From NCBI GenBank assembly GCA_902464275.1, contig CABQIK010000004.1, positions 18,479-82,478 on the forward strand: a DNA stretch of 64,000 nt. Direction: 5' to 3'. The notes beneath the pieces are model-generated. The model did not search any database. It was not told where the DNA came from and saw only the letters and a list, made by a program, of their open reading frames with translations. Positions 4,822 to 47,613 of this stretch are shown here, piece by piece. This stretch comes from an uncultured Alphaproteobacteria bacterium. GTDB taxonomy: Bacteria; Pseudomonadota; Alphaproteobacteria; RF32; CAG-239. Every line of letters starts with the position of its first letter. Within the stretch, counting starts at the first letter, position 1. The translations under genes were made by a program, and so were the position numbers.

Positions 4822-4980
4822 ATGAAAAAAGCGTTTTTATTGTTTGTAATTGCCATGTTGGGAGCTTGTGTGGTATCAGGAGATTTTCCGGAAGACCGTA
4901 ATCGTTTGCATGAATTAGGACGCGATGATGTTTACTGCCAAAAAAATCCTGACAAGTGTATAGATGGTATACCGTGGTAA
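4822..4980 (+). CDS. small lipoprotein (52 aa), not in the ORF track
   Basis: MKKAFLLFVIAMLGAC lipobox signal, 4 Cys in the mature part, follows the previous gene after 8 nt. Confidence 0.4.
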   Translation: MKKAFLLFVIAMLGACVVSGDFPEDRNRLHELGRDDVYCQKNPDKCIDGIPW

Positions 4981-42661: not shown

Positions 42662-43021
42662 TTATTTTTTAAGAGCCGCTTTGGCAGAATCTACCAGTTT
42701 AGCAAAAGCTTGGGGCTCTTTCAAAGCGATATCAGCGAGAACTTTACGGTCAAGTTCAATGCCGGCTTTAACGAGCCCGCTGATAAATCGGGAATAAGTC
42801 ATATCATGCAGACGGGTTGCGGCATTAATACGCTGAATCCACAACGCGCGGAAACTTCTTTTCTTTGCGCGGCGGTCGCGGTAAGCATATTGCAAACCTT
42901 TTTCAACTTTTTCAACAGCAACTCTGAATACATTTTTATTACGACCGGTGTAACCTTTAGCCATACCAAGAATTTTCTTGTGGCGAGCATGAGCGGTCAT
43001 ACCTCTTTTAACGCGTGACAT
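42662..43021 (-). CDS. rplT: 50S ribosomal protein L20
   Basis: 119 aa, [15 protein letters not shown]…. Confidence 0.9.
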
Positions 43022-43374: not shown

Positions 43375-44436
43375 TTATTTTTTAAACAGTAAATTAGTGT
43401 TAAAATAATCAATGCCCATGGCCGATTTTACTTCATGCAAAGTGTTTGAGGCGGTTTCACGCGCTTTTACGCTTCCGTTTTGCAGCATGTTGAAAATTTC
43501 GCCGATGTCGGAGGCCAGTTGTTCACGCTTTTCGCGAATCGGTTTCAATTCGTTTTGCAAAATTTCATTCAAAAAACGCTTAACCACGCTGTCGCCCAAG
43601 CCGCCTTTTTGGTAATGAGCCTTTAATTCCGCCAAATTTTGATAAGCAGGCAGAAAAGCGGCAAAATGTTCGTCTTTGCAAAAAGCGTCAAGATAAATAA
43701 ACACCGGATTATTTTCAGTGTGGCCGGGGTCTTCAACCCGCAAGTGGGTGGGGTCGGTAAACATACTCTGCACTTTTTTCTTAATATCATTTGACGAATC
43801 GGAAAGATAAATGCAGTTGCCTAATGATTTGCTCATTTTGGCGGCGCCGTCAAGCCCCGGAAGGCGCGAGCAGATGCTGCTTTCAGGCAAAACCGCGGTC
43901 GGTTCAACCAAAACCGGACGGTAAACGGTGTTAAACGAGCGCACAATTTCGCGGGTTTGTTCAATCATCGGCAGTTGATCTTCGCCTACCGGAACAAGAT
44001 TTGCCTTAAAAGCCGTGATGTCGGCAGCCTGACTAATCGGGTAGGTTAAAAATCCGACCGGAATGCTTTGCTTAAAGCCGCGCAGATGAATTTCATTTTT
44101 AACCGTCGGATTGCGCTGCAGGCGAGATAAGGTTACCAAATTCATGTAGTAGAATGAAAGCTCGCACAGCTCCGGAATTTGCGACTGAATGAAGATGGTT
44201 GACTTTTGAGGGTCAAGCCCGCAAGCCAAATAGTCAAGCGCAACTTCTGAAATGTTGGTGCGAACTTTATTAATGTCATCGGCGTTGTCGGTTAAAGCCT
44301 GAGCATCGGCAATCATAATGTAAATATTGTGATATTTGCCGCTGTTTTGCATTTCAACGCGGCGCTTTAATGAGCCGACATAGTGCCCTAAATGTAATTT
44401 TCCGGTGGGTCTGTCACCCGTTAAAATCGTGTCCAT
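43375..44436 (-). CDS. trpS: tryptophanyl-tRNA synthetase
   Basis: 353 aa; HIGH-type LHLGHY and KMSKS motifs; TrpRS-like length. Confidence 0.75.
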   Translation of the reverse strand: MDTILTGDRPTGKLHLGHYVGSLKRRVEMQNSGKYHNIYIMIADAQALTDNADDINKVRTNISEVALDYLACGLDPQKSTIFIQSQIPELCELSFYYMNLVTLSRLQRNPTVKNEIHLRGFKQSIPVGFLTYPISQAADITAFKANLVPVGEDQLPMIEQTREIVRSFNTVYRPVLVEPTAVLPESSICSRLPGLDGAAKMSKSLGNCIYLSDSSNDIKKKVQSMFTDPTHLRVEDPGHTENNPVFIYLDAFCKDEHFAAFLPAYQNLAELKAHYQKGGLGDSVVKRFLNEILQNELKPIREKREQLASDIGEIFNMLQNGSVKARETASNTLHEVKSAMGIDYFNTNLLFKK

Positions 44437-44519
44437 AATTAAACTCCTTATTTATTCTTTCAATTAAACCAAAGGTTACGGCTTGTCAAGGTTATCTTAT
44501 GATTATGGAAGTTTGTGTA

Positions 44520-44548
44520 TTGACAGATTTGACAAATAATTGTATAAT
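44520..44548 (+). promoter_or_regulatory. perfect consensus sigma-70 promoter (TTGACA-17-TATAAT) facing the 4-gene insert
   Basis: ttgaca at 44520-44525, 17-nt spacer, tataat at 44543-44548; about 200 nt upstream of ORF 44755. Confidence 0.5.
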
Positions 44549-44754
44549 TACCTTGTTTACTTAAAAATATGTTCATTATTATGTTGAAAATTCGGTTGGT
44601 TTTAGGTTGTCAGCTTAAAAACAGTCAGAAAATGCAGCAGAAAATGAAAATTTTGCGGTGAGCAATCGTTATTGTGGCACATTCTGCCATCTCCCTTTGA
44701 CGGTTTACTTTATTTGGTCTATCTGGAGAGTAGACGCCATTAACATTATTTCTT

Positions 44755-45774
44755 ATGGCAAAAATTTTCAGTTTTTTGGGAAGCCTCTTAGAGGGACTTC
44801 TTATGGTTGTTGTTTTTTACAACCCGGTGTCGTTTCTTGTTTGGAGTTTTGTTGCTCCGAAAAAAGCCGCCGCGATCATGGTCACCAAAGACGATGACTC
44901 AAAGGTTATGCGCTTTTTGAGCAATCTTCACAAGCCGTTGACTCATCTGTATCCGATGTACATCAAAAAGCACTTCATGAAAGCTTTGGGGATGAGGAAT
45001 TATTCCGCCAACGCTCAGGTGAAAGCTTTTAGAGCTTTGAACGAATCGGACGTTCCTGCAAAAGCGGTTAAGCTTGTTGAACAAATGAGCGATGTTGCCG
45101 TTTCCAAGCTTTGGGATGACAACATGTTGCGGCATAGGAGTTACAATCCGGTGATTACCTATGCGGTTACTGAGTCGGGAAAGTCGTTGATGACTCGTCA
45201 GCTCAAAGTGTTGTTTGAGAGGGAGGATTATGATAGTTTTGGCAACTATGCCAAGAATCATACTCTGAGCAAAGCAGCATTAGAGTTGCTCATTGAGCGG
45301 ATGGAGCAAAAGTCAGAGCAAAAGTCAGAAGACAAAGAGTCTTTTGATAAGTTGCAAGACGTTCTGTTCAGCCAGATTGAAAAGAACGGCCTTCCTGCAA
45401 ACTTGGTGGAGAAAGCAGTAAAAGCTTGCGGGCAGAATCAGCTGGCGATTACAAAATCTTTTGAAGTCTTCCGCCAGAAAACCTTGGTTCTGTCAAGGGA
45501 CTATAAGGCGTTTTCAGAACTTGTAAAATACAAAAAACTGGCGCCGTCTGTGGAAGCGTTGATGGACAGAGAACAGTACAACAGCTATCTGGAAGCAGGC
45601 AACCATCTTAGTGACGAAGCAATTCGTGAATTTATAGCTCGCGAAAATATGGCAATATGCGATCTTATATTTAAGAACGAAAAGCTTTCAGCGGTGGCTG
45701 TTTTAATGGCTGAAGCCAATCCGAAATTTGCGCTGAAGCTTCCGGCCGGAATTAGTCTGATTTCAAAATGTTAA
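44755..45774 (+). CDS. hypothetical membrane-anchored alpha-helical protein (insert gene 1)
   Basis: 339 aa; N-terminal hydrophobic hairpin (FSFLGSLLEGLLMVVVFY / VSFLVWSFVAP); helical remainder with a KSEQKSEQKSEDKE linker. No SD. Codon usage differs from flanking genes (ctt/ctc/agg/tca enriched, NCG depleted). Confidence 0.5.
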   Translation: MAKIFSFLGSLLEGLLMVVVFYNPVSFLVWSFVAPKKAAAIMVTKDDDSKVMRFLSNLHKPLTHLYPMYIKKHFMKALGMRNYSANAQVKAFRALNESDVPAKAVKLVEQMSDVAVSKLWDDNMLRHRSYNPVITYAVTESGKSLMTRQLKVLFEREDYDSFGNYAKNHTLSKAALELLIERMEQKSEQKSEDKESFDKLQDVLFSQIEKNGLPANLVEKAVKACGQNQLAITKSFEVFRQKTLVLSRDYKAFSELVKYKKLAPSVEALMDREQYNSYLEAGNHLSDEAIREFIARENMAICDLIFKNEKLSAVAVLMAEANPKFALKLPAGISLISKC

Positions 45775-45778
45775 GGAT

Positions 45779-46315
45779 ATGACGAATTTTGAAATTATGC
45801 TGGGCGGACTCTCGTTAGTCTTGTTCGGCGGAGCCTTCACCTTGCTGTTGTGGGGTGATTTTCAAAAGGCCAAGACTTTTAAAATCGTTCTGATTCTGCT
45901 CATGGCTGTCAGCTCGGTTGGCGCGGTTTACGCCATATACAGCCAACTGAAACTTGCTGCGCAAATAGCAGAGAAGTATGTGATTGTCGCATTAGAAAAC
46001 GAATATTCTACGGTGAATGAAACCGATGTGTTCGGAATTGATGCTGATTCTTACACCATTCTGCCTACCGGTAACAAGCTTTTGAAGAAAACCTTGTACG
46101 GGAATTTGGAGTGGAGAGATACTTCTTTTGTGCAGCAAATTGACTCATCAGGTAACAGCAAAACAATTTGTTTTGTAAAAACGCGAGTCAAAAGAGTTAA
46201 ACTCGGCAGCGCAGAAGCGACAAGACCGAATCAACCCGGCGCAGAAATAAAAGTAAAGTGCCGGTATAAAGTCGGGGATACGGTAAAGGTCCGCGGTGAC
46301 CGCATCATTCCTTGA
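45779..46315 (+). CDS. hypothetical 2-TM protein with beta-rich C-terminal domain (insert gene 2)
   Basis: 178 aa; TM hairpin then a soluble domain ending in RYKVGDTVKVRGDRIIP; 4 nt after gene 1. Confidence 0.5.
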   Translation: MTNFEIMLGGLSLVLFGGAFTLLLWGDFQKAKTFKIVLILLMAVSSVGAVYAIYSQLKLAAQIAEKYVIVALENEYSTVNETDVFGIDADSYTILPTGNKLLKKTLYGNLEWRDTSFVQQIDSSGNSKTICFVKTRVKRVKLGSAEATRPNQPGAEIKVKCRYKVGDTVKVRGDRIIP

Positions 46316-46328
46316 TTTTAGTTCTTAT

Positions 46329-46358
46329 AAAAAAACTCCTCGTTTGAGGAGTTTTTTT
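46329..46358 (+). terminator. intrinsic terminator inside the insert
   Basis: aaaaactcctcg tttg aggagttttttt. Confidence 0.6.
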
Positions 46359-46425
46359 AATGCCCTCTTGATTTATTTAAAAGTTCTCGTTATAAGGTAA
46401 TCAGAAACTCAAATTTTTATGATAT

Positions 46426-47031
46426 ATGTATGAATTTTTAAAAATTATGATGGTTGTTTGCGAAATCGCGATGATCATCGGTTTTGTGTTTTTTGTTGCT
46501 TTCCAAGCTTATTTTTGGAGCGACAGAGATCATGCTAAAACCTTTTTTATGTTTGCGCTGTACTCATTGCTTGGCGTGAGTATTTGCGGATGGTTTATTC
46601 ATGGCTGCGCGCTTAATGCAAAAGCTATTGTTTCTGCGGTTGCGGTATTGCTGATTATGGCTCAATTTTGCTTTTTTAAGGAGCGGTGGCAAGAATTTTA
46701 TGCCAGAGAGCGGTCACCGTTTAAAAAGCTGAAGAAAGCTCTTATTTTTACAATTTTAGTATTGATATTGGGCTTTTCAGGTGCTTACGGTTACTGCAAA
46801 AAGCAAAAAGCTGATTATCAACGCGCGCATGCAGATATGTATGTGGTTGTCGGCTTTGGAATAAGAGCCGCAGATGATGGCATGAGCTCAGTATATGATA
46901 CTGATGAAGACCATTTGTTTGTGGCAATCAGACCCGTAGACTGCTATAAAGCAAAACCGAGAGTGTTGATATCAAGAAAATATCATCTCGGGGATACAGT
47001 ACTGATGTTTCACAATAAACCGGTGTCGTAA
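46426..47031 (+). CDS. hypothetical 4-TM protein (insert gene 3)
   Basis: 201 aa; 4 predicted TM helices; C-terminal about 60-aa domain ending in KYHLGDTVLMFHNKPVS; non-host codon usage; no SD. Confidence 0.5.
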   Translation: MYEFLKIMMVVCEIAMIIGFVFFVAFQAYFWSDRDHAKTFFMFALYSLLGVSICGWFIHGCALNAKAIVSAVAVLLIMAQFCFFKERWQEFYARERSPFKKLKKALIFTILVLILGFSGAYGYCKKQKADYQRAHADMYVVVGFGIRAADDGMSSVYDTDEDHLFVAIRPVDCYKAKPRVLISRKYHLGDTVLMFHNKPVS

Positions 47032-47579
47032 TGTATGTATCAGCGCTTGCAGGCATGATTATTTGCGGAACGTTTTTGTTGCTCGCCTTTATATTTTATG
47101 TACGCGCGCAATGGGTGTTTTGGTTTTATTACGGAGAAGAGCTGTATTGGTTAGTAGGTTTTATTATGGTGCTTTTGTTCAGCGCCTCCTATGCCGATAT
47201 GCTTTTTCCGCTTGATGGAACTGATTTGCTAAGCTCCGCTTTGATTTTTGTGTTTGTTTCCGCCGCGCAATATGTGTGCGGTCAGGTACGATTAGAGGAA
47301 ATGCGCAATACGCCTCCGTGGTGTTGGGAGCATTATGCCAAAAAATTTATGCCGCTGTTTATTGTTGCCGTTGTTGCGTTGCGCTTTGCTTTTGCCGGAT
47401 GTTTGGAGTATCGGGAAAATTATCGTTGGAATCATGCCGAATCGGTTGATGAAAATTCGGAAGTAAAGATTTTTAACGGTAGGCAAATCAAGCAACCGGT
47501 TTCAAAGTTTAAGCTCGGGTATCAGGAAATTACCTCAGCGGTTGAACGCGAAAAACAACGTAAAACTAAAAAGAAGTGA
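47031..47579 (+). CDS. hypothetical 4-TM protein, paralog of gene 3 (insert gene 4)
   Basis: 182 aa; same 4-TM topology and similar N-terminal region (FVAFQAYFW vs FYVRAQWVFW); start overlaps the previous stop (TAATG); codon usage closer to the host. Confidence 0.5.
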   Translation: MYVSALAGMIICGTFLLLAFIFYVRAQWVFWFYYGEELYWLVGFIMVLLFSASYADMLFPLDGTDLLSSALIFVFVSAAQYVCGQVRLEEMRNTPPWCWEHYAKKFMPLFIVAVVALRFAFAGCLEYRENYRWNHAESVDENSEVKIFNGRQIKQPVSKFKLGYQEITSAVEREKQRKTKKK

Positions 47580-47613
47580 AAAAGACGCCTTTATTTATAA
47601 AGGCGTCTTTTGC
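47580..47613. terminator. bidirectional intrinsic terminator between insert gene 4 and der
   Basis: aaaagacgccttta…taaaggcgtctttt. Confidence 0.6.

Follow-up and report, generated by a model that had tools for sequence, protein, structure and literature searches.

A consensus promoter and a conserved structured leader upstream of an uncharacterised membrane-protein gene in an uncultured alphaproteobacterium

Why should a promoter that matches the bacterial consensus at every position stand in front of genes that belong to no known family? The question is raised by a stretch of 64,000 nucleotides (nt) from an uncultured alphaproteobacterium (assembly GCA_902464275.1, contig CABQIK010000004.1), the whole of which we call the window. 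On its plus strand, positions 44520–44548 (TTGACAGATTTGACAAATAATTGTATAAT) hold an exact TTGACA (44520–44525), a 17-nt spacer (44526–44542) and an exact TATAAT (44543–44548), a match at 12 of 12 hexamer positions. Both the consensus hexamers with their optimal spacing and the setting between divergent genes had been pointed out in a preliminary description of this DNA, and both hold: the first ATG of the downstream open reading frame (ORF), ORF1, lies at 44755, 206 nt past the -10 hexamer, and the start of the divergent trpS gene is 84 nt away. Our analysis suggests an answer that reaches beyond the promoter. We consider it likely that a functional consensus promoter here feeds a conserved, structured, cis-acting leader which sets the output of ORF1, and perhaps of ORF1 and ORF2 together.

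A consensus promoter under selection

No other 12/12 match exists in the window, nor does any other site where a 17-nt spacer goes with one mismatch or fewer. Counting both strands, 0.02 exact sites are expected per 64 kb (2 in 100 dinucleotide shuffles), and an analytical estimate based on composition puts the figure at 0.022 per 64 kb, equivalent to about 0.7 per 2 Mb. Since a 2-Mb genome should thus hold about 0.7 perfect sites by chance, the perfect match alone proves little. What raises the site above chance is selection, visible as invariant hexamers amid varying neighbours. Among 12 distinct haplotypes of the genus, with the fourfold-degenerate sites of trpS as the neutral yardstick (38% of columns variable, nucleotide diversity, pi, 0.152), the -35 and -10 hexamers do not vary at all (0% of columns, pi 0), whereas 71% of columns vary in the 21 nt upstream of the -35 hexamer (pi 0.36) and 100% in the 4 nt after the -10 hexamer (pi 0.34). 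The spacer is variable in sequence, at 24% of columns (pi 0.107). By simple arithmetic, twelve invariant sites have a probability of about 0.003 at the neutral rate of 38%.

The element has sequence features by which sigma-70 promoters are recognised: near-consensus hexamers 16–18 bp apart, an intergenic position facing a gene, and hexamers that are kept across relatives. Another E. coli-like promoter in this organism, TTGATA-16-GATAAT, is found 46 nt upstream of tRNA-His. As far as sequence comparison can tell, the element at 44520–44548 is very probably a functional promoter of the sigma-70 type that selection holds at consensus. Very strong expression, as suggested in the preliminary description, would be plausible. 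In its exact hexamers and optimal 17-bp spacer it is like the synthetic consensus promoter and near-consensus natural promoters such as phage T5 N25 or the ribosomal RNA P1 types, and with consensus sigma-70 promoters it shares a back-to-back divergence from the promoter of a housekeeping gene. It differs from them in that the full consensus appears to be held by selection in three lineages and in that an extended -10 is missing. No TG of an extended -10 was found at the promoter, and the window has no obvious A-tract upstream (UP) element. A second, inner TTGACA is present within the spacer (44529–44534); it reads TAGACA in several relatives and hence is not conserved. Explanations based on an extended -10, an UP element or the second TTGACA were therefore dropped.

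According to a review, scarcely any natural promoter has the consensus in full. Selection that keeps a promoter at full consensus in several lineages would be unusual among natural promoters; the promoter alone would be a curiosity. The larger result concerns what follows it, an uncatalogued, conserved and covarying 5′ leader that divergent uncultured bacteria have inherited along with a consensus-type promoter and an uncharacterised protein family.

A structured leader that recurs with ORF1

From promoter geometry, we infer that transcription starts within 44553–44556 on the plus strand, with a G at 44555, 7 nt past the -10 hexamer. Conservation switches on at 44553, where the start is expected, and continues up to the ATG, which delimits a leader of about 202 nt (44553–44754). 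Over leader nucleotides 1–120, pi is 0.034, 4.4-fold below that of the trpS fourfold sites.

The preliminary description recommended looking for the same promoter and leader on other contigs, and the module is present in six further lineages. These are the sister lineage L023, whose ORF1 is 42% identical to the window's protein, and five more distant ones (L021/L022, L024, L025, L072/L065 and L135) with 24–30% identity. The module lies beside trpS, between ftsY and xseA (L021/L022 and L024, both without ORF2–4) or next to a hydrolase gene (L025); L072/L065 and L135 are metagenomic. TTGACA is perfect in L023, L021, L024, L025, L072 and L135 and is followed in each by a TAnnnT -10 hexamer. The spacer is 17 nt long in every lineage except L021, where it is 16 nt. 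The full TTGACA-17-TATAAT recurs in L025 and L023, and the remaining -10 hexamers read TAACCT (L024), TATCCT (L021), TATTCT (L072) and TATGTT (L135). In all six lineages 199–217 nt separate the -10 hexamer from the ATG, and two blocks are shared, AUUAUUAGGUU near the 5′ end of the leader and GCCAUUAAAAUU-N-AUGGCA at the start codon. To judge from these sequences, promoter, leader and ORF1 are co-inherited across distant lineages.

Scans with short patterns had a mixed yield. A short-motif scan returned mostly noise, with ORF1 relatives at 4 of at least 120 loci. When one genome per species was scanned, the leader block was found in four metagenome-assembled genomes (MAGs). By their titles, two are Alphaproteobacteria, in line with the word alphaproteobacterial in the preliminary description, and the others are one Proteobacteria and one Lachnospiraceae; one of the two Alphaproteobacteria is tagged HGM16767, which we read as pointing to a human-gut collection. 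A 25-base leader pattern gave no match in a scan of JGI metagenomes, yet the JGI contig L016 (Ga0565122_011481) contains this very pattern, so the absence is uninformative.

The 5′ part of the leader, domain I (44553–44665), is predicted to form a rod-like hairpin of 113 nt, supported alike by single-sequence folds, by covariation and by a covariance model that finds distant copies de novo. Its closing helix pairs 44553–44561 with 44657–44665 and its apical loop is at 44609–44611; folding singles out the 77-nt hairpin at 44572–44648 (z = -2.5). The same rod, built from different helix sequences, appears in single-sequence folds of the window, L021, L024, L072 and L135. In a MAFFT alignment of 13 leaders, made from sequence only and evaluated with RNAalifold, 19 of 37 pairs show compensatory changes; shuffled alignments give 7.3 ± 1.8, and none of 500 reaches 19. 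In the same alignment 92.5% of cells are paired, as opposed to 34–45% once the partners are slid by 1–3 columns. In the closing helix (helix 1), 6 of 8 pairs are compensatory.

A covariance model trained on the genus and L023 only was used to search 318 kb, including 35 unrelated loci, the best of which reached an E-value of 2.6. It placed the distant domain I at exactly the expected coordinates in L024 (1.4e-5), L021/L022 (3e-4), L025 (0.18) and L072 (0.25), and position 1 of the model falls 5–7 nt past the -10 hexamer in every lineage. The alignment fitted to the model has forward-strand rows only and leans to the structure by construction; in it 97% of cells are paired and compensatory changes are seen in 31 of 41 pairs, compared with 5–12 once the partners are slid. 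An internal loop of domain I, AUUA (44578–44581) facing GAA (44640–44642), is invariant in all 12 rows of this alignment. The structure is assigned to the plus strand because G-U pairs are frequent and the reverse strand scores much more weakly.

Domain I is followed by three smaller elements. The domain II hairpin (44667–44702) carries on its 3′ side the sequence UCUCC (44690–44694). The P2 hairpin (44717–44735), closed by GUCUA and UAGAC, exposes in its loop (UCUGGAGAG) a Shine-Dalgarno-like GGAGA (44725–44729), for which UCUCC is the partner. P2 and its loop pairing were judged by per-sequence folding, as MAFFT sets these stems out of register. The P2 stems differ among lineages yet stay complementary (GUCUA/UAGAC, UCUCAA/UUGAGA, CCCAA/UUGGG, UCUUCA/UGAAGA and UCCC/GGGA), and the loop, be it GGAGA, GGAAAC or GAAGG, complements UCUCC, GUUUCC or CCUUC situated 17–22 nt upstream of P2. 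In this loop-to-upstream pairing (helix 6), which together with P2 forms a predicted pseudoknot, 3 of 5 pairs are compensatory. Last comes the P3 hairpin (44736–44759), in which GCCAU (44736–44740) would pair with AUGGC (44755–44759), enclosing the start codon of ORF1. P3 is predicted in all 8 leaders folded locally (10 when within-genus haplotypes are included), and folding single sequences at full length gives it in 6 of 8 cases.

On the combined evidence of conservation and covariation, there is little doubt in our minds that the leader is a selected, structured RNA. The long structured leader that the preliminary description had conjectured is thus substantiated, 44553–44754 being more conserved than synonymous sites and having a covariation-supported fold. 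It is previously uncatalogued and belongs to no described family. A search of the window at Rfam gathering thresholds returned two tRNAs only, and nothing relevant was found in Rfam at E ≤ 10 for 44380–44860 or at E ≤ 1 for six related loci. The 6S RNA was considered and rejected, having no Rfam match; moreover, the leader consists of two domains attached to a gene and not of one free-standing rod.

The first ATG of ORF1 (44755) is probably the genuine start, because it is conserved and because the alleles differ after it by a 12-nt indel that keeps the reading frame. A Shine-Dalgarno sequence at the usual distance is missing there. Gene callers pick this ATG in relatives, but in the strain group of the window they take a second one at 44803, which GAGGGA precedes. 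A separate observation is that L008 has ACG, around its position 4975, where the other relatives have the ORF1 ATG, whereby a G-U in one predicted helix becomes G-C; this may be a sequencing error, or translation may begin at a GTG farther downstream or at a codon other than AUG.

What the leader may do

If these elements work together, the promoter would constitutively supply abundant transcript starting near 44555, and the output of ORF1, together with that of ORF2 as far as a hairpin at 46328–46359, would be set after transcription. The 5′-terminal rod may protect the mRNA, bind a factor or do both, presenting its invariant AUUA/GAA loop to a putative partner, while the P2 pseudoknot and the start-codon hairpin P3 would gate the access of ribosomes. 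That the leader acts in cis on ORF1 expression seems to us reasonably probable. As to how, the assignments below are not mutually exclusive. A role chiefly as mRNA stabiliser is possible but doubtful, protein binding is somewhat unlikely, and the sensing of a small molecule is more unlikely still. We regard as speculative, on a par with the stabiliser, the idea of a new class of ligand- or protein-sensing RNA (a riboswitch or an autoregulatory operator) in which the AUUA/GAA loop would be the sensor and the pseudoknot with P3 the switch. If the leader did sense a ligand or a protein, poorly studied and apparently gut-associated Alphaproteobacteria would have yielded a further class of regulatory RNA, and the sensor would control a widespread, uncharacterised family of membrane-anchored alpha-solenoid proteins.

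Several points weigh against the reading in which a strong promoter feeds a regulatory leader. A promoter with the consensus sequence is not necessarily the strongest in vivo, as escape from very tightly bound promoters can limit its output. The covariance model missed domain I of L135. Within the genus only 1 of 61 pairs is compensatory and 53 of 61 are invariant; covariation is uninformative there because almost nothing varies, and the case hangs on the six diverged lineages. Taken singly, the duplexes between the P2 loop and its upstream partner are not stronger than shuffles (p 0.03–0.38), and it is their fixed position and covariation that carry the case. P3 (helix 7) is invariant in 13 sequences and contributes no covariation evidence, and AUGGCA is also constrained by coding, most members of the family beginning with Met-Ala; since P3 never varies, its pairing is unproven. 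GGAGA, for its part, is separated from the AUG by about 25 nt, more than an ordinary Shine-Dalgarno sequence allows, which makes its role in translation conjecture.

Three groups of known leaders offer themselves for comparison. Leaders of the ompA type and of S-layer genes are long 5′ untranslated regions (UTRs) in which a 5′-terminal stem-loop shields abundant mRNAs for envelope proteins from decay that depends on the 5′ end. The present leader has in common with them a promoter inferred to be strong, a length of more than 100 nt, an envelope or membrane gene downstream and a helix at the 5′ end; its predicted closing helix (44553–44561 with 44657–44665) begins at the predicted +1. It differs in being longer (about 202 nt) and in having an invariant internal loop, a predicted pseudoknot and a start-codon hairpin, and there is no sequence relationship. 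These three additional elements suggest regulation rather than stabilisation alone.

SAM-II, preQ1-II and guanidine-III are translational riboswitches that hide the ribosome-binding site in a pseudoknot. Here, too, a conserved, structured 5′ UTR domain with covariation resembles an aptamer, a purine-rich, Shine-Dalgarno-like P2 loop would pair upstream, and the start codon would be paired in P3. These pairings might serve as an expression platform, although P3 is invariant and the spacing between GGAGA and AUG is atypical. Unlike in these riboswitches, domain I is a long rod and not a compact junction, Rfam has no match at E ≤ 10, and the downstream gene gives no metabolic clue. JUMPStart/ops elements acting with RfaH and the UpxY-dependent capsule leaders of Bacteroides, finally, are conserved 5′ leaders ahead of hypervariable surface loci, and our locus is similar in that an invariant block of promoter and leader precedes polymorphic, recombining envelope genes. 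In contrast to them, it has no ops sequence, no NusG paralogue was seen nearby, and in the distant lineages the leader goes with a single ORF1 gene and not with a variable cluster.

Four other explanations compete with a cis-acting leader, and we judge all of them less likely. The one to be taken most seriously, though still improbable, is that domain I constitutes a stable small RNA in its own right, made from its own transcript or by processing, which acts in trans or binds a protein, while ORF1 is expressed by read-through or from a weaker promoter downstream. Domain I is indeed the best conserved part of the leader and a self-contained rod with paired 5′ and 3′ ends; a compound hairpin with an interrupted U-rich stretch at 44664–44716 (-11.1 kcal/mol, z = -2.9) is a weak attenuator candidate; and some distant leaders contain a second promoter-like site, for example at 4923–4952 in L021. 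Yet a terminator scan found no terminator within the leader and no canonical one after domain I, the conserved blocks P2 and P3 run on to the start codon, and the 64-kb window holds no second copy. A distance of 199–217 nt from the -10 hexamer to the ATG everywhere, together with an RNA that is always attached to an ORF1 homologue, is better accommodated by a leader that acts in cis.

The same leader contains a basic ORF of 30 codons (MFIIMLKIRLVLGC...), which the preliminary description had offered as a possible reason for its existence. The ORF is present, at 44569–44661, but we judge it non-coding, and a leader that works through it, whether by peptide-dependent attenuation or through a small toxic or regulatory peptide, is very improbable. 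An AUG does occur at the homologous UAUG (44569) in 6 of 7 lineages, the initial residues M-F/V-I-I recur in the window, L025 and L024, and ORFs of 29–30 codons are found in the window, L025 and L135. Against this, seven changes in it are non-synonymous and one is synonymous, a 1-nt deletion shifts its frame in L010, L015 and L016, L021 has lost it (AUA for AUG), its counterparts end after 4 codons in L072 and after 18 in L024, and in other respects the peptides are unrelated. The AUG at 44569 lacks a Shine-Dalgarno sequence in front of it, and the helices of domain I together with the AUUA loop explain the conserved bases. A leader-peptide attenuator is accordingly unlikely: with the frameshift, the lost AUG and the non-synonymous pattern, this is not a conserved translated upstream ORF.

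The two remaining alternatives deny a leader RNA or place its promoter elsewhere in origin, and we give little credence to either. One holds that the promoter is a chance or merely adequate match and that the conserved intergenic DNA reflects low divergence or sites acting at the DNA level, such as operators or recombination anchors. In its favour are the chance expectation given above, the shallowness of the genus, in which even the third codon positions of rplT are 97–99% identical, and the fact that the conserved leader borders a recombining island, for which it could serve as a homology arm. The conservation is patterned, however, with invariant hexamers and flanks that vary at or above the neutral rate, and the architecture recurs, with compensatory changes and G-U pairs, at 24–30% protein identity and in other genomic contexts. 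Nor are the distant leaders recent horizontal copies, as their flanking genes are not near-identical. Anchors in the DNA or hitch-hiking cannot explain such recurrence in distant lineages and contexts.

The other alternative, raised in the preliminary description, which spoke of an insert or an imported element carrying its own promoter, is that the four genes downstream are a recently acquired mobile cassette. In its favour, these genes have no known family, divergence among their alleles far exceeds that of the backbone, and relatives do not all have the same right flank. On the other hand, every relative found, including the sister lineage with 42% ORF1 identity, keeps the junction with trpS on the left, the guanine-cytosine (GC) content of the cluster matches that of its flanks, and neither terminal direct or inverted repeats, tRNA targets nor integrase or transposase genes were found at the cluster. 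Scans of viral contigs with the promoter and with the leader block gave no match. A motif of the form GCCATTAAAATT-N-ATGGCAA, encountered in viral contigs L146–L166, was set aside as conserved phage coding sequence, unrelated to the leader and without an ORF1 homologue. The promoter, furthermore, lies within a block that is 100% identical between strains whose genes differ, and a ratio of non-synonymous to synonymous divergence (dN/dS) of about 0.1–0.2 with high dS indicates that alleles are exchanged by homologous recombination. Synteny with trpS, matching GC content and the lack of mobility marks mean that the locus is not a recent insert. Import does take place in a narrower sense, in that alleles of the genes, and not the promoter, are swapped by recombination.

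The four genes and their surroundings

ORF1 (44755–45774, plus strand) encodes a protein of 339 residues for which a structure model (predicted local distance difference test score, pLDDT, 81) proposes a membrane anchor at the N-terminus and, after it, an all-alpha solenoid. ORF2 (45779–46315; 178 residues) has hydrophobic N-terminal segments that, by eye, would fit two membrane-spanning helices, and ORF3 (46426–47031) and ORF4 (47031–47579) encode hydrophobic, putative membrane proteins. ORF3 and ORF4 are weak paralogues, and a C-terminal GDTV motif is common to ORF2 and ORF3. Pfam, NCBIfam, PHROGs and PADLOC provide no family for the four ORFs, only weak, composition-driven matches to TauE and DUF3522. 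Close homologues of ORF1 make up only 25 clusters, whereas 86 clusters of full-length relatives, most of which start with Met-Ala, came out of a profile search that covered 1.84 billion representative proteins. The 64-kb window contains neither a second copy of ORF1 nor a paralogous leader. Promoter and leader thus offer a tractable handle on the ORF1 family and, in this genus, on a recombining, hypervariable membrane-protein locus.

The variability of this locus stands out against a stable background. Numerous metagenomic contigs that share the gene order encode the TrpS protein without any change, and homologue contigs down to 47% identity have trpS, the spacer and the unknown genes all in that order. 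Among relatives, DNA identity is 90–99% for housekeeping genes and 59–82% for the four ORFs, and protein identity is 96.6–100% for TrpS and 45–82% for ORF1–4. Strains with 100% identical flanks differ by 3–20% in the four genes; between the window and L006, for instance, both flanks are 100% identical and the operon is 80–97% identical in patches, and L004 combines two sets of alleles as a mosaic. Synonymous divergence is 0.1–0.4 in the ORFs and 0–0.03 in trpS, der and bamB. By all these signs, the segment 44755–47579 is a recombination-driven, hypervariable island at a fixed locus, where homologous recombination reshuffles the alleles and the promoter ahead of them stays invariant. The pattern suggests long-lived membrane-protein alleles that would be kept by balancing or frequency-dependent selection.

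Within the cluster, a hairpin with a perfect stem of 14 bp (TAAAAAAACTCCTC/GAGGAGTTTTTTTA) and runs of A and T on either side lies at 46328–46359, between ORF2 and ORF3. It is a probable terminator, likely bidirectional, that the terminator scan did not pick up, and with it in place the transcript of the consensus promoter probably spans ORF1 and ORF2. As it is followed by a promoter-like TTGATT-17-TATAAG at about 46368–46396, ORF3 and ORF4 may form a separate transcription unit with a promoter of their own. The four-gene cluster is closed by a bidirectional terminator at 47580–47611 (inverted repeat I3), beyond which der and bamB lie on the minus strand.

The right flank is less constant among close relatives. 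In L008–L010, L015, L017 and L023 it varies, the cluster being followed by der and bamB, by genes for an ion-transport protein and a peptidase A24, or by a gene for a ResIII helicase of about 1100 residues, and ORF2 is missing in some relatives. The right junction looks like a rearrangement hot spot. The MAG titled Lachnospiraceae bacterium (L013/L007; GCA_963594125.1, CAVBCV010000001.1) has the same pheST-rplT-trpS-leader-ORF1–4-der-bamB locus; this bin is probably mislabelled or contaminated.

To the left, the promoter shares the 318-nt spacer between trpS and ORF1 with whatever drives trpS. On this side the minus strand encodes pheT, pheS, rplT, rpmI and trpS. The trpS gene (43375–44436, minus strand) begins at 44436–44434, with a Shine-Dalgarno sequence AAGGAG at 44449–44444, and the trpS-proximal part of the spacer (44437–44498) is also conserved (pi 0.05). 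A minus-strand TTGACA at 44489–44484, inside the conserved palindrome CTTGTCAAG (44482–44490), is a candidate -35 hexamer for trpS, and only a poor -10 (TAATTG) is found 17 nt downstream of it. From the Shine-Dalgarno sequence and this TTGACA we conclude that two promoters probably stand back to back; the region of the palindrome CTTGTCAAG could be the promoter of trpS or an operator. A last observation concerns rplT (42662–43021): its 97–99% identity holds even at third codon positions, while those of trpS are 75–91% identical in the same relatives, which suggests strong constraint at the codon or RNA level or a recent sweep.

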